Below are positions 31,143 to 51,403 of a DNA stretch of 64,000 nucleotides, piece after piece; the stretch's first letter is position 1; every line of letters starts with the position of its first letter. The translations under genes and the position numbers were made by a program. The notes below the pieces were generated by a model that saw only the letters and a program-made list of their open reading frames with translations, was not told the DNA's origin and did not search any database. This DNA is from a virus, in the IMG/VR virus record IMGVR_UViG_3300045988_117195, positions 31,385 to 95,384 of that record; one strand, given 5' to 3'.

Positions 31143-32843
31143 TTATTTTTTGTCATCTCCTTTTAATTTCTTTAAAGTATCTGCAATCGGAAGCTGATCA
31201 ATGACTCCCAATGCCGGAGCGACGGTCTTGACAACATTGTTAAGGAAATTACCGGTACTGTTCTGACCGCCGTCAAATACCGTGATATTTCCGAGATTAA
31301 TGTGCTCAAATGCTTTAACCTGTTCTCCAGCAATTTCTTTCCACTGATTAACCATCTTGTACTGGATGGCGATCTGAGGATTGGATTCTGCTGCTTCCAC
31401 CATAGCCTTAAATCCGTCGGCTTCTGCCATTAACGACTTTTTCTTACCTTCGGCTTCTGCCTCCAGCTTCATCTGAATAGCTTTTGCCTCTGCCTCAGCT
31501 TTTGCCAAATGTGCTGATGCCTCAGCCTCAGCCCGGCGTTTGATCTTCTCGGCCTCGGCATCAGCTTGCAAGATAGCCTCTTCCTTCTGGGTTTCAGCCG
31601 GCACAATCTTTTCAGCCTTAAGCGCAGCCTGAACTTTCTTAGCCTTAGCTTCTTCCACTTCTTTGTCTGCAAGCTCTTTTGCTGTTTTTACAGCCGCTTC
31701 CGATTTAACTTTTTCTTCTCCGGCCTTCTTTTCTGATTGAGCTTTGATAATCTGCAATTCTGATACTGACACAGCAACCTCCTTCTGGGCATTGTTGTAT
31801 CCTATAGACGCATTTTTCTCAGCCTCAGCCTTCTTAATCTGAGCTTCAGAGTTTTGTATTGCTATAGCTGCTTCCTTGTCAGCTTCAGCCTTGTTCTTTC
31901 CGACTTCTTCCATCCTTTCAGCCTCGGCTTTATTTACTTCAAGTTCTGCCTTAGATCTTACGATCGCCGATTCCTTGTCGGTTAAAGTTTTTGCGATAAC
32001 CGCAGCCCTATCTCTATCTGCTTGAGCTACACCAATCTGTTTTTCTTTATCGGTTAAAGCCAAAGCTATTTCTTTTTCTTTCTTCGTTTCAGCTACTATT
32101 GTTTCCTTTTCTTTTTCAGTACAAGCAATTTGAATCTCTTGTTCTTTTTTGGTATTAGCCACAGCCGTTTCTTTCTCCTTCTGCTGTACAGCAATCTTAA
32201 TAGCCCCCAGCTTCTCCTGTTCTTCGATATTAGCCTGTGCTTCGTTCAGAGCCCTACTTTCAGCCTCCTTACCAAGGTTCATAATATAACCGGCTTCGTC
32301 TCTAATGTCACTGATGTTGATGTTCAGGAGGTAAAGACCTAACTTGTTAAGCTCGTTATCAATGTTCTTTCTTGCCTTATCCAAAAACTCATCCCTGTCA
32401 GAATTAAGTTTTTCGATTGTCATTTCAGCAATAATCAAACGCATCTGACCGTAAACGATGTCCGTAATAAGATTTTCAGTAGATTCGGTATCCATTCCCA
32501 AAAGTCTTTCTGCCGCATTTTGCATGATCTCTGGATTTGTACTGATAGCTACTGTAATAGTCGTAGGAACATCTACTCTAATATTCTGAGATGACAAAGC
32601 ACCGGTAAGCTTGCAATCTATTTGCATAGGCTCCATTGACAAAACATCATAGCTTTGAATAATAGGCAAGACAAATGCCGCTCCACCATGATATAATTTC
32701 GCCGATTTCTTTTCCCCACCTGTCTTACCATAAACGACCAAGACCTGATTAGGCTTACATCTACGATACCTTGATAAGACTCCGATGATTGTCAAAATAA
32801 TCACTACAGCTAAGATAGCTGACACGTACATGATTGTTGTCAT
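31143..32843 (-). CDS. flotillin-like SPFH/band-7 protein (FloT/YuaG family) with N-terminal TM helix and long Ala/Glu/Lys coiled-coil
   Basis: Collinear with B. subtilis FloT: YRRCKPNQVLVVYG, GGAAFVLPIIQ, AGYIMNLGKEAESRALNEA, EA-repeat region, C-terminal NITVFDGG. Confidence 0.85.
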   Translation of the reverse strand: MTTIMYVSAILAVVIILTIIGVLSRYRRCKPNQVLVVYGKTGGEKKSAKLYHGGAAFVLPIIQSYDVLSMEPMQIDCKLTGALSSQNIRVDVPTTITVAISTNPEIMQNAAERLLGMDTESTENLITDIVYGQMRLIIAEMTIEKLNSDRDEFLDKARKNIDNELNKLGLYLLNINISDIRDEAGYIMNLGKEAESRALNEAQANIEEQEKLGAIKIAVQQKEKETAVANTKKEQEIQIACTEKEKETIVAETKKEKEIALALTDKEKQIGVAQADRDRAAVIAKTLTDKESAIVRSKAELEVNKAEAERMEEVGKNKAEADKEAAIAIQNSEAQIKKAEAEKNASIGYNNAQKEVAVSVSELQIIKAQSEKKAGEEKVKSEAAVKTAKELADKEVEEAKAKKVQAALKAEKIVPAETQKEEAILQADAEAEKIKRRAEAEASAHLAKAEAEAKAIQMKLEAEAEGKKKSLMAEADGFKAMVEAAESNPQIAIQYKMVNQWKEIAGEQVKAFEHINLGNITVFDGGQNSTGNFLNNVVKTVAPALGVIDQLPIADTLKKLKGDDKK

Positions 32844-46238: not shown

Positions 46239-47051
46239 TCATTTATTTGTTTCACTTATGAAATTGACAACATCCTTTAGATATCCTTCTGTCATCTCTA
46301 TGAAATTCACACAATCTAATTTGCTTAACTTGTAAATCAATGCCGGATTGTGTACTATGGCTATAATTTGCGTTTGTAGTTTATGGAATGACAATACATT
46401 ATAAATTTGCATTATATTGTCAATGTCAAGATTCCTGTCTGGCTCATCCATGAGAACCGTGTATTCAAAACTGCTTTCTGCTAATGTTATGCGGTTTCTT
46501 TTATAATACTTCAACAGACTATCAATCCTTTTAATCCAAAACGCATTTGATTTTTTCTTGTATTCTACAAGATCTTGTATTGGAAACGTATAATCCTTTT
46601 GACCGAACATTAAATTGAAAAGTGATTCCAATGATAACACCACTTTCTCTCCATAAGATCTTCGAATATTATTCACATACAAATCTAAGTTGCTGATGTT
46701 TTTCAATACGCTATCTCGATTTATCTCCGCCGATGGCAATAAACGGAATACTTTCCCTGCATAATCGGATGATATGTCAATCCCATCAAGAACCTTGTCA
46801 TCATCATCATCATCAAATATAGGTGGAAAATCCAGTGCCTCGATCGGTATTTCAGAGCACATGGATTTCTCACATAACGCATACATTGATATGATGTTAA
46901 GCAAGGTTGATTTTCCACTACCGTTTTTACCTACAATCACATTCACTCCTGGCTTGAAAATAAATTCTCTGCCATTTTCAAACGCTTCTATGTCAGAAAC
47001 ATATTCAAATGGAGTTTTCGTATTGTCTTTTATTTTTACTGATGTTATCAT
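46239..47051 (-). CDS. ABC-type ATPase (AAA_21/OLD-like stand-alone ATPase)
   Basis: Walker A VGKNGSGKSTLLNI, signature-like SYGEK, Walker B TVLMDEPDRNLD, H-loop IAIVHNP. Confidence 0.7.
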   Translation of the reverse strand: MITSVKIKDNTKTPFEYVSDIEAFENGREFIFKPGVNVIVGKNGSGKSTLLNIISMYALCEKSMCSEIPIEALDFPPIFDDDDDDKVLDGIDISSDYAGKVFRLLPSAEINRDSVLKNISNLDLYVNNIRRSYGEKVVLSLESLFNLMFGQKDYTFPIQDLVEYKKKSNAFWIKRIDSLLKYYKRNRITLAESSFEYTVLMDEPDRNLDIDNIMQIYNVLSFHKLQTQIIAIVHNPALIYKLSKLDCVNFIEMTEGYLKDVVNFISETNK

Positions 47052-47062
47052 TGTAATCCTTT

Positions 47063-47917
47063 TTAAAAATCAATTACCGTCCGAACCATGTCTCCGATGT
47101 GCTTGTTGCCAGTGCCCGTGAGGCCACTGGAGAAGACCACGTACCACGCGACGGCCTGGCTGCTCTCAGTACTGGACCAATACCACGTCGAGGAGAGGGG
47201 AGATGCCGAAACATAAGTGAATGCTTTGTTTAGTTCGTCCATATTATGGGCCATTAAATTTAATTGACCAAGAGATGGTATATACTCGCCATCTTCCAGC
47301 AGATTTCTCAATTTTGGATTTCTGGCTACAAGGCGTTCCGTATTGCCGCGTCCGTCAATGTCAAACAGCGCATCACATTCACGTTCATAATATGTCCCAC
47401 TTCCGGATTCTTCACGGCTATCATCGTCAAGCAATTGTACGATATCATGCTCCGTCAGTGAGATTGCAAATGACATGTATCTGTGCTTCAACCCGATGTA
47501 TCGTACACAATCTTTGGAGTTATCGCCGGTAAACGGCTCTGCATGTCCGTCTTTGTAGATTATATACAGTCCGTCAGTTGACTCTTTCTTATCCTCTTCG
47601 GATGGTACTCTGTTTTCACATGTACATTTCTCACTTTTGGATCTTACGATTATATTCAACTCATTTAATACATGATCCCTGATGACGCTCTCGCACGCTT
47701 TTCTTACAAAATCATGATCTCTTCGTTTGAGTTCATCATTCACCATGCATCTGATCCAGTTTTCTATCTGGTTGTCACCTCCATATGTATTAACCATGTA
47801 CCGTTTTACGTGTTTCTCCAATAACGGCTCTATGTTTTTGATTATATCTTCTTTGGTAAGGTGAAGTTCATTTAATATACAGTTCCTTACTGCCTTGCAT
47901 TCTTTACTTGTGCTCAT
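47063..47917 (-). CDS. protein with C-terminal DUF1566 (Lcl C-terminal-like) domain; 3' end of gene is a GC-rich patch
   Basis: C-terminus IPSLGQLNLM...WYWSSTESSQAVAWYVVFSSG matches DUF1566 pattern; 47063-47200 far more GC-rich than surroundings. Confidence 0.5.
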   Translation of the reverse strand: MSTSKECKAVRNCILNELHLTKEDIIKNIEPLLEKHVKRYMVNTYGGDNQIENWIRCMVNDELKRRDHDFVRKACESVIRDHVLNELNIIVRSKSEKCTCENRVPSEEDKKESTDGLYIIYKDGHAEPFTGDNSKDCVRYIGLKHRYMSFAISLTEHDIVQLLDDDSREESGSGTYYERECDALFDIDGRGNTERLVARNPKLRNLLEDGEYIPSLGQLNLMAHNMDELNKAFTYVSASPLSSTWYWSSTESSQAVAWYVVFSSGLTGTGNKHIGDMVRTVIDF

Positions 47918-47928
47918 GATATGCCCAT

Positions 47929-48396
47929 TTAATACTGTGAATCATATTTTCTTTCTCTCCCGCTGTCTTCCCCTATAGGATTATCCCATCCGTATTTTAC
48001 AGCCGTAGCTTTAAATAGAGGTAGCCCGTAAAATCCATAATCATCCTCATCCCAGTCTTCAAGACCTTCTTCCAGGATGTAGTTCCACATCATCACACAT
48101 TCAAACATTAAACTGGCTGATATCCCTCTCTGATTTAATGCCTTTTCAAAACCGAATCTTACATCTTCTTCAAGCTGTTTCAAAACATTCTCCCTGGTAA
48201 ATTCAACTACAGTACTGTTCCACCTTTCTTCGTTATTGTATTCTTCGTTCGGCTCCATACCGAAATCCTTTATCATGTTATATGGGATAAATTTAGCCAG
48301 TCTGTTAAAATCTCTACCGTCTAAACATTTTGATGCTAATTCTTTAAGTTGTTCTAATGTTTTCATAAGCAATTTTGTTTTATAGGTTAATCCCAT
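47929..48396 (-). CDS. hypothetical protein, overlaps NTase gene by 10 nt (possible partner)
   Basis: ORF in minus block. Confidence 0.45.
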   Translation of the reverse strand: MGLTYKTKLLMKTLEQLKELASKCLDGRDFNRLAKFIPYNMIKDFGMEPNEEYNNEERWNSTVVEFTRENVLKQLEEDVRFGFEKALNQRGISASLMFECVMMWNYILEEGLEDWDEDDYGFYGLPLFKATAVKYGWDNPIGEDSGRERKYDSQY

Positions 48397-49049
48397 CCTC
48401 CAGTAGTGTACAAAGATACATCTTCCTCCTCTACGTTTACACCTTTAATAGCCTGTAGAAGTTTTTTCTTTGTCTCCCGGCACATATTGTAACCATATCC
48501 TTTATACCGATATGAGCGCTCCCATGTACTTACTGGAAAAGGGATATTTTCGTCAATAACCAGCCTCTTCATATGAAGATGTTCGAAGAATTTCTCATGA
48601 TAGAGTAGTTTGTACTCGTATGCTACTATACTTGCAGATGAGAATGGAAAATAATCATCTTCTTTTTCTTCGTATTTGGGCTCCTTATAGTAAGCCATTT
48701 TTGTCACAGTAAAATCGAAGCTCCTAAGAATCTCTTTCGGCTTTCCAAACTCTGACTCTATGAACTCTATCCATACCTTTTCTCCCTCTTTCTGGAACGC
48801 ACATACCTTCTCATTTCTGTACTTAAATTTCCATCCTTCTTTCTGATGTTTTTCATCATTGAACGAATCAATAGCCTCCTGAAAATCGCTTTCACTTTCA
48901 AAGAAAATATCAATGTCTTTTACTCTTTCTCCGGAAAGGATATTTTTAAAACATCCACCAGCTATGAATCCTTTGTGGCCTTCCATATACTTGTCAAGCC
49001 ATCTTATTTGCCAGAAATTATCTGGAGTATCTATTACAAAATTATTCAT
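48387..49049 (-). CDS. Pol-beta-superfamily nucleotidyltransferase, CCA-adding/poly(A)-polymerase head-domain-like
   Basis: GFIAGGCFKNILSGERVKDIDIFF aligns with class II CCA-adding motif GGAVRDLLLGRPVKDIDI (GG-x10-DxD). Confidence 0.6.
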   Translation of the reverse strand: MNNFVIDTPDNFWQIRWLDKYMEGHKGFIAGGCFKNILSGERVKDIDIFFESESDFQEAIDSFNDEKHQKEGWKFKYRNEKVCAFQKEGEKVWIEFIESEFGKPKEILRSFDFTVTKMAYYKEPKYEEKEDDYFPFSSASIVAYEYKLLYHEKFFEHLHMKRLVIDENIPFPVSTWERSYRYKGYGYNMCRETKKKLLQAIKGVNVEEEDVSLYTTGGWD

Positions 49050-49067
49050 ATTGTTTATGTTTTGCCG

Positions 49068-49322
49068 TTACCAAGCGAGATAAAAATTCCGCTTCACAAT
49101 AATACAATGAGTGTAATTACTCAGGTCGATTCCGTTGTCCGTAAATGCATCCAGGACCCGTTTTTCCACGTATTTGAGTTTTACTGTTATCCCCTTCTTA
49201 AACACTTCTATTAACTTCTCATTGCACTCAATAGGTCCAATAAAACAGTACCTATTTGAAGGACTGTCTGATATACAATATGTCTGACATCCTAACATGT
49301 TGCTTAAAATATTCTCATACAT
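49068..49322 (-). CDS. hypothetical protein
   Basis: ORF in minus block. Confidence 0.4.
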   Translation of the reverse strand: MYENILSNMLGCQTYCISDSPSNRYCFIGPIECNEKLIEVFKKGITVKLKYVEKRVLDAFTDNGIDLSNYTHCIIVKRNFYLAW

Positions 49323-49447
49323 ATTTTCTATATTTTACAATTTTTAGCTATGTTACTTAATTCAGCGGTCATTATCAAATCTGATAGTGATCGCCCCGCA
49401 TGCACATTTTTGAATAAATTTTATCTTTAATAATTTTCTCATTAGAG

Positions 49448-49921
49448 TTATCCTCTATTTACTTTTTTCTTTATTTCTTCCGCGATCTCTTCTAATGTTG
49501 TTGGAGATAAATAATCATCTATCCTCAACTCTCTTACATAACCTAAGCAATCCAAATCTTTAGCATCCATCTCCTGCTTCTCTTCGTCGACCCACCTTAA
49601 AGTGCCATTTTCTCCACATTCCGGGCATTTATCTGCCCCACACGGAAGAAGCATTTGCGCCCCACATAAGACACATCTTACCCAGTCTCCGTGCTGCACC
49701 CCTTCGTATGTTCTTGTTTTCATATTTGTCATTTTATCATTTACAACTTTCACTTCTTCGCTCCACAAACGTCTCTTATATATCGGAGTGATGCCGATCA
49801 GAATACCACTATCTTCACCCCAATACTGAAGTGTTTTGGACTCAATTTTATGATGCAATTCCTGTATTCCTCCTTTGTTTCTGTCATAAGGATAAAAATC
49901 AGATAATTTTACCATTTTCAT
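49448..49921 (-). CDS. zinc-ribbon protein
   Basis: CVLCGAQMLLPCGADKCPECG. Confidence 0.45.
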   Translation of the reverse strand: MKMVKLSDFYPYDRNKGGIQELHHKIESKTLQYWGEDSGILIGITPIYKRRLWSEEVKVVNDKMTNMKTRTYEGVQHGDWVRCVLCGAQMLLPCGADKCPECGENGTLRWVDEEKQEMDAKDLDCLGYVRELRIDDYLSPTTLEEIAEEIKKKVNRG

Positions 49922-50655
49922 TTTTCTGGATTTTCAGTAGTTCCTAAAAGACATTCATTACCCTCAAAATGAATACAATAATCCCATAATGTTCCATTGG
50001 AACATTCGTACTTATAAGGCAATCTATTATAATCGTCCACAATTTCCCTTGCAAACAAACTGATATTCCATTTTTTATTTCCTTCTTTTCTTACCAGCAC
50101 TTTATCAAACGGCTTAAACTCATATTTCGGCTCTTCTTTAATCCCGAAGAAGCGTTTCAGATACTCTTTAGCTTTAGGTTCTTTGCTTGCCTTTAATGCG
50201 TCAACCAACTTTTGTCTTTCGGACTCAGTGGCAAATCTGTATTTTTCTATCTGATTTTCCCCAGCAGATAAACCATCTTTTATTTTAAGAATACCTTTTT
50301 GATTTAAAGAGGCATAAAAAGACGTTAAATATTTCCCATGTGTATTTAAAATAAAGATATAGCTACCATCTTTATTACTTAACACCTCTCCATCTTTAAA
50401 TGTAATATATTCTGGAACTTCAAGAAGGAGGCGATTTTCGCTGCTAAGTGCTTTTCCTGTAGCAGAAAACCAGTCTGCCGATACAGAAATCGAATGAATT
50501 ACAACCAATAACGGACAATTTGACGAATTGTCTTCATATACGATTTCTGCTCTATTTTGTCCTTTCTCTGTCACAATACGACCTGCTATTTCCCCTATGT
50601 TTATTTTTTTCGCCGTTTCTAAATCAAACGGAATTGTTGCTGTTCTCTGTTCCAT
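49918..50655 (-). CDS. hypothetical protein, tandem paralog B
   Basis: Shares N-terminal (IPFDLETAKKI..GEI.G) and C-terminal (FKPFDKVLVR...W.NLHLFAR...YKYEC...G.E.LLGT) blocks with adjacent gene. Confidence 0.5.
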   Translation of the reverse strand: MEQRTATIPFDLETAKKINIGEIAGRIVTEKGQNRAEIVYEDNSSNCPLLVVIHSISVSADWFSATGKALSSENRLLLEVPEYITFKDGEVLSNKDGSYIFILNTHGKYLTSFYASLNQKGILKIKDGLSAGENQIEKYRFATESERQKLVDALKASKEPKAKEYLKRFFGIKEEPKYEFKPFDKVLVRKEGNKKWNISLFAREIVDDYNRLPYKYECSNGTLWDYCIHFEGNECLLGTTENPEK

Positions 50656-50659
50656 GATC

Positions 50660-51403
50660 TTATTTGCTTTTATTAGTTCCTAAAAGATGCTCATTTCCTT
50701 GGTATGGAATACACTCTTTGTATCTCAAACCTCCCAAGCATTCATATTTGTATTCTTCTTCTCTTACTCTGGCAAATAAGTGTAGATTCCAATTTCCCAA
50801 ATTGCTTGCTCTCACCAAGACTTGATCGAATGGCTTAAAATCGCATTTCTTTTCTTTAGTCAGCAAGTATTCGTACTCACTTAGATATTGTTTTATTATT
50901 CCTGCTTTTTTAAGGTTTTCTGTATTAGCAATTCTTTCAGCAAAAGATTTTTTCTCTTCCTCTGTGGCTAATCTAACATACTTGGATTTATCCTCACCAC
51001 ACACACTTGTCCATATTGGAACTTCTTCAGATGTAATCTCGCCATATGCCGATATACCATATATGCATCCCATATCTCCTTCTCTATTAATAATACCATT
51101 ATATATAAATGGGTTCCCAAGCGTGCTTATTAATACATCTCCTTTCTTAAAATACGCTCCAGCCTCTACTTCCAATTCCAGAACGTTGTTGAAAAAAGTA
51201 CGACCTTCTGTATCGGCATATATAGCACTTATCCCAGATTCATCTTTTTTTACAAAAAGTAAATTATAACGATCTGCACAGTCTTTTGACTCATATACAA
51301 ATTCTATTTTAATATTACCAATTAATACTGAACCTTCTATTTCTCCGCTTTTAATTTTTCTCGCCGTATTTAAATCAAACGGAACAATAATTGGATTTTC
51401 CAT
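50660..51403 (-). CDS. hypothetical protein, tandem paralog A
   Basis: Paralog of 49918-50655. Confidence 0.5.
   Translation of the reverse strand: MENPIIVPFDLNTARKIKSGEIEGSVLIGNIKIEFVYESKDCADRYNLLFVKKDESGISAIYADTEGRTFFNNVLELEVEAGAYFKKGDVLISTLGNPFIYNGIINREGDMGCIYGISAYGEITSEEVPIWTSVCGEDKSKYVRLATEEEKKSFAERIANTENLKKAGIIKQYLSEYEYLLTKEKKCDFKPFDQVLVRASNLGNWNLHLFARVREEEYKYECLGGLRYKECIPYQGNEHLLGTNKSK

Follow-up and report, generated by a model that had tools for sequence, protein, structure and literature searches.

The window analysed here, a 64,000-nucleotide stretch of a viral record (IMG/VR IMGVR_UViG_3300045988_117195, positions 31,385 to 95,384), carries on its minus strand the gene of a 220-amino-acid (aa) nucleotidyltransferase (NTase). 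By sequence comparison, this NTase belongs to the Gad2 family as a short form that consists of the NTase module alone. Gad2, the second Gabija anti-defence gene, was described in the Bacillus phages SPbetaL6 and SPbetaL7, encodes 400 aa, and is toxic upon expression (bioRxiv 10.1101/2023.05.01.538930). In the structural model of the window protein, the module has the head and the proximal neck of a class II NTase, with neither body nor tail. The reading favoured on balance is that this stand-alone class II core of PF26128/PHROG 4400 acts in counter-defence. The human-gut phage csAssE-Sib (OR575929) was found to be a relative of the window, with 92.6% nucleotide identity across positions 47000–50000. 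The NTase gene and its elements are located as follows, in window coordinates.

48387..49049, minus strand: NTase gene, a 220-aa open reading frame (ORF); short-form Gad2 family, modelled as class II NTase head and first neck helices
48906..48959, minus strand: motif A, residues 31–48 (GGCFKNILSGERVKDIDI), which bears the catalytic aspartates D45 and D47
48765..48767, minus strand: E95, in the strand of residues 93–101; presumed third metal-binding carboxylate, from the class II fold
48708..48719, minus strand: FDFT, residues 111–114; motif-B-like, compare RRDFT of CCA enzymes, with the Asp kept and both Arg gone
48492..48536, minus strand: neck helix, residues 172–186 (PVSTWERSYRYKGYG), with R178, Y182, and G186 invariant; putative equivalent of motif D

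The ORF translation, with GGCFKNILSGERVKDIDI at residues 31–48, agreed with an earlier note on this DNA, which had reported the motif in a 220-aa protein and had read the protein as a minimal NTase of the CCA-adding and poly(A) polymerase type.

Fold and class II relationship

The relationship with class II enzymes gave marginal signals by sequence methods. The PolyA_pol profile (PF01743), a search suggested in the earlier note, did match the NTase (E = 0.044, 14.6 bits), yet below its gathering cut-off of 23. Scans of the NTase with Pfam, NCBIfam, and PADLOC gave no match above threshold, in a Pfam copy that lacks PF26128 and in which Gad2 itself was unmatched. A profile of 93 family sequences reached the human and bacterial CCA enzymes of the PDB at E = 0.05–0.6 through motif A alone, and HMMER aligned the motif A stretch of the NTase with IAGGAVRDLLNGVKPQDID of the human CCA enzyme. 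A phmmer search of the PDB with the NTase returned a single chance match to an ABC transporter, which was discarded.

The structure was decisive where these methods were marginal, and the class II assignment is firm for that reason. An AlphaFold2 model of the NTase, built from the family alignment (A1), had a mean predicted local distance difference test (pLDDT) value of 90.7 and a predicted template modelling score (pTM) of 0.85. When this model was compared with the PDB by Foldseek, the best 42 matches were all class II CCA-adding or A-adding enzymes or the Escherichia coli poly(A) polymerase (PAP), with a probability of 1.00, E values of 1e-7 to 2e-3, and 200–236 aligned columns. The matches included the A-adding enzymes 4WC2 and 1VFG, the CCA-adding enzymes 5HC9, 3H3A, and 1MIV, human TRNT1, and E. 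coli PAP (3AQK–3AQM); 5HC9 and 3H3A are structures of the Thermotoga maritima CCA-adding enzyme. MenAT1 and other minimal transferases of the MNT/MenT type reached only E values of at least 0.12. Among the virus structures of BFVD, the matches of the model were phage and giant-virus NTases, with a template modelling (TM) score of 0.84 for that of Bacillus phage Bak10. The model, the Foldseek matches, and the conserved catalytic centre thus bore out the class II minimal NTase that the earlier note had proposed.

In the model, the head sheet was followed by helices at residues 154–159, 172–184, and 191–202, and the protein stopped at residue 220. The claim that the protein lacks neck, body, and tail held for the body and the tail; it did not hold for the neck, since the helices 172–184 and 191–202 were modelled as neck helices. 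The match to the class II enzymes (PF01743) took in the head fold and the beginning of the neck; motif A was nearly verbatim, and the third acidic residue was located on the next strand. However, the window NTase is about half the size of these enzymes, with no body or tail, and by eye neither the arginines of RRD nor the E-D of EDxxR was conserved. With the body and tail absent and these residues unconserved, the NTase is not expected to count or to template C-C-A on a tRNA.

Conservation of the active site

When 1.84 billion representative proteins were searched exhaustively with HMMER, 1005 clusters of the NTase family were recovered at E <= 1e-3, the clusters being defined at 50% identity. 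The family members were nearly all 190–230 aa in length, apart from truncated or chimeric gene calls, and this nearly uniform length of ~200 aa indicates that the small size is a property of the family and not a truncation.

Residues 31–47 of the NTase read GGCFKNILSGERVKDID and follow the motif A pattern GGxxxDxxxGxxxxDxD, in which G31, G32, D45, and D47 were invariant among 93 diverse sequences. In ~90 diverse homologues, D45 was conserved in 100%, D47 in 99–100%, and D112 in 98–100%, and position 95 was acidic in ~96% (of 91 homologues, 70 had Glu there and 17 had Asp). Residues F113, F155, R178, Y182, and G186 were also invariant in this set, and F111 was conserved in ~98%. The earlier note would have counted a missing NTase fold, or an Asp triad not conserved in homologues, against its proposal; the model has the fold, and the triad is conserved in the homologues.

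The remaining class II motifs were compared by eye and by fold. FDFT (residues 111–114) was likened to the motif B sequence RRDFT without its two arginines, and PVSTWERSYRY (residues 172–182) to the helix of motif D, where (S/N)-T-x-x-R stands in place of E-D-x-x-R and the Arg is retained. When the family profile was aligned by hhalign with an E. coli Cca sequence, motif A only was aligned, with a probability of 3%; since motif A alone was covered, the equivalences proposed for motifs B and D are putative.

In the sister phages, D45, D47, E95, D112, and R178 were retained in all 79 orthologues. The median ratio of nonsynonymous to synonymous substitution rates (dN/dS) of the NTase was 0.087 (1887 pairs with dS > 0.05), so that selection on the gene is strongly purifying. 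Two otherwise intact orthologues among the 79 (loci L059 and L082) carried an internal stop, which may mean that the gene is an occasional pseudogene, that the sequence is in error, or that the stop codon is recoded in those contigs. Judged from the modelled fold and its conserved carboxylates, the protein is very probably an active nucleotidyltransferase.

Family membership and comparison with Gad2

In PHROGs, the NTase was assigned to phrog_4400 (E = 6e-66, function not annotated), with weaker matches to phrog_18122 and phrog_27100 (~1e-10) and to phrog_1614, which is annotated as 'nucleotidyltransferase' (E = 1.5e-8). Its membership of the Pfam family PF26128 'Gad2' was read from precomputed matches on identical or related proteins. 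These were found on a database protein that holds the identical 220 aa (P0001), on clusters of 220 aa with 95% identity, and on a member with 38% identity. A literature search naming PF26128 or csAssE-Sib found nothing.

The Gad2 gene of SPbetaL7 (OQ921347, 109563–110765) was used as the reference. Knockout of Gad2 makes the phage Gabija-sensitive, a homologue from Brevibacillus abolishes Gabija, and AlphaFold predicts an NTase domain in Gad2 (bioRxiv 10.1101/2023.05.01.538930). The window NTase was matched to SPbetaL7 Gad2 by BLASTP with E = 1e-7 and 21% identity. The profile of the short form aligned with the single Gad2 sequence by hhalign at a probability of 98.2%, and with 40 aligned long-form homologues of Gad2, each of them PF26128, at 99.3% (E = 2.8e-20), residues 1–207 of the short form lying on residues 1–180 of Gad2. 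Gad2 itself matched phrog_18122 at 1e-89 and phrog_4400 at 8e-27.

The sequence AGG...DxD, the FDFT motif, and a neck helix with an invariant Arg and Tyr were common to both proteins, and the invariant residues D106, R151, and Y155 of the long form were parallel to D112, R178, and Y182 of the short form. Both forms occur in phages or prophages, in accessory gene regions, and in one Pfam family. They differ in their principal PHROG, which is 18122 for Gad2 and 4400 for the window NTase, and in an additional β-hairpin of the window NTase (residues ~118–151) that lies opposite a gap in Gad2.

The small phage NTases of PHROG 1614 (the T7-like phages LIMEzero and PP2, and gp22 of phage Emajogi) are likewise stand-alone and structurally similar (BFVD E ~4e-5), but are more distant relatives of the window NTase. 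The over-expression of Emajogi gp22 is reported to be mildly cytotoxic, and the homologues of gp22 carry a Gad2-family annotation (bioRxiv 10.64898/2026.09.15.751885).

The short form was found in 114 phage records, of which 54 were Streptococcus phages, and was common in phages of S. thermophilus. The family extends over phages of Bacteroidota, Bacillota, and Proteobacteria, including the very abundant crAss-like phages of the human gut and dairy Streptococcus phages.

Gene boundaries and the downstream gene

The genes on either side of the NTase gene are as follows.

47929..48366, minus strand: downstream gene, PHROG 5706; 145 aa with Met11 as its probable start, while the longest ORF extends to 48396 (155 aa)
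49068..49322, minus strand: upstream 84-aa ORF, in frame with the NTase gene with TAA and 5 codons between; a separate gene

By the longest-ORF rule, the downstream gene encodes 155 aa (47929..48396), as the earlier note had it, and the 10-nt overlap with the NTase gene reported there is present in the longest ORFs; that overlap is most likely an ORF-calling artefact. A start at the equivalent of Met11 (MKTLEQ...) was present in 32 of the 33 homologues chosen for alignment, with M11 and K12 invariant. The PHROG 5706 match spanned residues 11–154 of the 155-aa ORF, and the gene is annotated as 145 aa in the csAssE-Sib record. From these sequences, Met11 is most likely the true start of the gene. 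Translation from Met11 (48366) leaves a 20-nt gap to the NTase gene in place of the overlap.

The earlier note had taken the downstream gene for a partner of the NTase. The two genes would form a unit, either as the halves of a split CCA enzyme, whose neck, body, and tail would come from the neighbour, or as a toxin–antitoxin pair of the MNT/HEPN type. The genes adjoin each other on one strand, their longest ORFs overlap, and both are present in csAssE-Sib. However, the Met11 start removes the overlap, and the neighbour was not co-inherited with the NTase. Close relatives were compared at 82 loci, all from near-identical crAss-like phages with an NTase 92–100% identical to that of the window. 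The NTase was retained throughout, whereas the downstream gene was intact at 40 loci, replaced at 29, and absent from 13, so that 42 of the 82 relatives keep the NTase without an intact neighbour. At the replaced loci (for example L066:6682–7484, with others among L008–L087; about window 47929..48386), a 220-aa gene was followed by a 39-codon remnant of the C-terminus of the 155-aa gene. The replacing 220-aa product reads, from its sequence, like a Dam-type DNA adenine methyltransferase.

Distant contexts, taken from GenBank phage records, gave the same picture. No homologue of the 155-aa protein was found within ~4–5 kb of the NTase at ten distant loci, namely those of Listeria phage P35, Streptococcus phage 7A5, Thomasclavelia phage TR-TP2, Bacteroides phage BF503P4, Maribacter phage Molly, Bacillus phage PBC4, Klebsiella phage KP13-16, SPbetaL7, and two metagenomic contigs. 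The phages that carry the two genes also differ in their hosts: homologues of the 155-aa gene were located mainly in members of the Ackermannviridae that infect Klebsiella, Serratia, or Erwinia. Two loci of this family were examined, in Klebsiella phage Menlow and Aeromonas phage phiA8-29, and at neither was an NTase found near the homologue.

The AlphaFold2 model of the downstream protein was all-helical, with a pLDDT of 87.7, and had no Foldseek match in the PDB below E = 1.9. The absence of a PDB match at this level indicates that the protein is neither the body or tail of a CCA enzyme nor a HEPN domain. PADLOC matched neither of the two proteins, nor any other neighbour of the NTase except an unrelated ATPase. 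The split enzyme fails on the separate inheritance of the downstream gene and on a model that matches no domain of a CCA enzyme. The toxin–antitoxin proposal finds no PADLOC match, no MNT or MenT structure below E = 0.12, and no HEPN-like neighbour. An obligate pair of the NTase and the 155-aa protein is refuted; a two-gene unit of either kind is very improbable, and we infer that the NTase works alone.

The upstream 84-aa ORF is also a gene of its own. Many database entries list a 311-aa fusion of this ORF with the NTase. At the junction (window 49050..49070), 78 recovered sequences kept the YLAW context, and all but one had 1–3 stops, often 2–3 (TAA, TAG, or TGA). The exception (L005:3001–3936) has CAA and encodes a genuine 311-aa fusion, P0001. 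With stops at nearly all of the relatives' junctions, the 84-aa ORF was ruled out as an N-terminal domain of the NTase. In the phage collection the ORF was found in csAssE-Sib only; it is a separate gene, specific to the lineage of the window phage.

tRNA genes and tRNA repair

The earlier note had placed the NTase next to CCA-less tRNA-like elements and had suggested tRNA 3′-end repair or tailing as a counter-defence. ARAGORN found no tRNA gene in the whole window. Rfam gave nothing at the gathering score in the window and nothing tRNA-like at E <= 1 within 40–58 kb. The neighbouring elements are thus not there. The suggestion of counter-defence fits PF26128 and the homology with Gad2; the suggestion of tRNA repair is weakened, as follows.

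In such a role, the minimal core would add C or A to CCA ends damaged by nucleases, or would mature CCA-less tRNAs of the phage. The nearest solved structures are those of A-adding and CCA-adding enzymes bound to tRNA. In addition, OLD-family nucleases, relatives of GajA, are reported in a review to cut tRNAs (Govande et al. 2025, via PMC12904381). The relative csAssE-Sib has CCA-less tRNA genes and RNA-repair-like genes ~18–20 kb from the NTase when its record is read as circular. Against these points, a tRNA-binding body or tail domain was present in none of the ~1000 family clusters, and by eye the templating E-D of EDxxR was replaced by (S/N)-T and the arginines of RRD were lost. The family is common in Streptococcus and Listeria phages of 32–37 kb, and the window is without tRNA or tRNA-like elements. 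The essential CCA enzyme of the host itself also serves CCA-less tRNA genes. A function in tRNA 3′-end repair or tailing is therefore quite improbable.

The tRNA genes of csAssE-Sib (L097, 2615–7027) are four in number (Cys-GCA, Arg-CCT, Gln-TTG, and Met-CAT), none with an encoded CCA as read from the sequence, and the cluster maps just outside the window by collinearity. A polynucleotide kinase/3′-phosphatase and an NrnA-like phosphodiesterase are located beside them and could be an RNA-repair set. The same record annotates a diversity-generating retroelement, with variable and template regions (VR/TR) and a reverse transcriptase, at 45.7–47.8 kb.

Genomic context

The NTase gene lies within a long run of small genes on the same strand, most of them without an assigned function, and the slot directly downstream of it varies between sister phages. 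In more distant phages, family members were found in several settings. In S. thermophilus phage 7A5, the member is located between Erf and SSB/RusA, a recombination module; in Listeria phage P35, it is among early genes; and in TR-TP2, it is among ThyX, a pyrophosphohydrolase, and a Holliday junction resolvase. In the 53-kb Bacteroides siphophages (L095:456–6489 and L088:1942–5457), the homologue lies between two genes that are thymidylate-synthase-like (dCMP hydroxymethylase), adjoined by a dUTPase, an AAA_28 protein, and a carbamoyltransferase. The Bacteroides cluster looks like one for DNA hypermodification.

These contexts leave room for an ordinary role in nucleic-acid metabolism, in which the NTase would carry out a step of DNA hypermodification or serve as a terminal transferase for recombination or replication. 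The genes for thymidylate-synthase-like enzymes, dUTPase, and carbamoyltransferase around the Bacteroides homologue, and the settings of the 7A5 and TR-TP2 homologues, speak for such a role. However, the contexts are inconsistent across the family, and no neighbour was conserved among those compared. Furthermore, the distribution among related phages is patchy, as fits accessory genes (S. thermophilus phage 2972 is without the gene), and Gad2, the sole tested relative, shows an anti-defence phenotype. A housekeeping role is unlikely on this evidence. Hypermodification was set aside as the principal reading, the context of the Bacteroides siphophages not being common to the other lineages.

Several other genes near the NTase were recorded. 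A 284-aa protein (window 47063..47917, minus strand) weakly matched the Lcl C-terminal domain in its own C-terminal part (E = 3e-4, under the cut-off). Its counterpart in csAssE-Sib is annotated as DUF3988, and it adjoins the NTase directly where the 155-aa gene is missing. Two genes downstream of the NTase, a 270-aa ATPase of the ABC/OLD type without a nuclease domain is encoded (window 46239..47051, minus strand). Its best PADLOC matches were mad3 (4e-17) and AriA of PARIS (1.4e-11, nearly full-length on the 253-position model), and it also matched the ATPase regions of GajA, PtuA, and LmuB. An ATPase of the defence type that is encoded by a phage might serve as a decoy or as an anti-defence factor, or might be a defence that the phage carries. 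On the other side of the NTase, adjacent paralogues of 245 and 247 aa (window 49918..50655 and 50660..51403, both minus strand) shared 34% identity over ~250 residues (E = 3e-30).

Proposed function

In the mechanism proposed for the NTase, D45, D47, and E95 would bind Mg2+, and a nucleotide would be passed from a nucleoside triphosphate (NTP), or possibly a deoxynucleoside triphosphate (dNTP), to a hydroxyl acceptor. As the ribose-sensing arginines of RRD are missing, the discrimination between ribo- and deoxyribonucleotides may be relaxed. Without the body, the tail, and the templating E-D pair, the NTase probably does not have as its acceptor a tRNA to be rebuilt to CCA; an unspecific nucleic-acid 3′ end, a small molecule, or a protein would be more likely. 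The NTase would act in counter-defence early in infection, through the enzymatic neutralisation of a nuclease system of the OLD family that senses DNA ends, such as Gabija.

Counter-defence is the best guess because of the homology with Gad2 and the behaviour of the gene as an accessory gene. Taken by itself and by analogy with Gad2, a counter-defence role is plausible and is advanced tentatively. An action specifically against Gabija is rather unlikely. Gabija is described as acting at phage DNA ends (PMC12904381), and a modification of 3′ ends by the NTase would, speculatively, fit this. It is conceivable, if unlikely, that the short forms are class II NTases with canonical catalysis but without tRNA domains, that they extend or cap the 3′ ends of nucleic acids, be it at the termini of phage DNA or on cleaved RNAs, and that end-sensing nucleases of the OLD-family or Gabija type are blinded in this way. 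The Glu/Gln difference described below would then mark two distinct chemistries in a single anti-defence family.

Several points weigh against counter-defence as the function of the short form. The C-terminal ~220 aa of Gad2 (residues ~181–400) are without a counterpart in the window NTase, and the identity between the two is just ~20%. Gln88 was invariant in the 40 long forms, where the short form has E95 (Glu or Asp in 96%), and a 450-aa long form of Klebsiella phage KP13-16 also has Gln there. With Glu in one form and Gln in the other at the third metal-ligand position, the chemistry may differ between the short and the long form. Inhibition of Gabija was demonstrated for SPbetaL7 Gad2 and the Brevibacillus homologue only (bioRxiv 10.1101/2023.05.01.538930), and a 2026 review states that the mechanism of Gad2 is not yet elucidated (PMC12904381). 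The Gabija system of S. thermophilus protected against 14 of 14 streptococcal phages tested, which belonged to five genera (PMC12322248). Most of those phages are without a public accession, and the single one checked for the short form, phage 2972, lacks the gene. Finally, the contexts of the family members differ between lineages, as described above.

Significance

The assignment of the fold is already present in GenBank annotations, and the family is already defined in Pfam and PHROGs. What is new is that the short form of ~200 aa, which is abundant, is linked explicitly to validated Gad2, that the Gad2 NTase module is recognised as class II, that the third metal-ligand position is seen to differ between the forms (Glu/Gln), and that the claims of a partner gene and of tRNA elements are removed. 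Among family members, GenBank labels that of csAssE-Sib 'polyA polymerase' and that of TR-TP2 'CCA tRNA nucleotidyltransferase'; both labels, now in two GenBank records, are ill-advised.

Gad2 is among the few anti-defence proteins that are predicted to act enzymatically. The short form is much more abundant than Gad2 and consists of the NTase module alone with the canonical acidic triad kept. Being small and probably soluble, it offers a tractable entry to the mechanism of Gad2. If the reading in which short forms cap 3′ ends is true, it would provide a direct biochemical handle on that mechanism.

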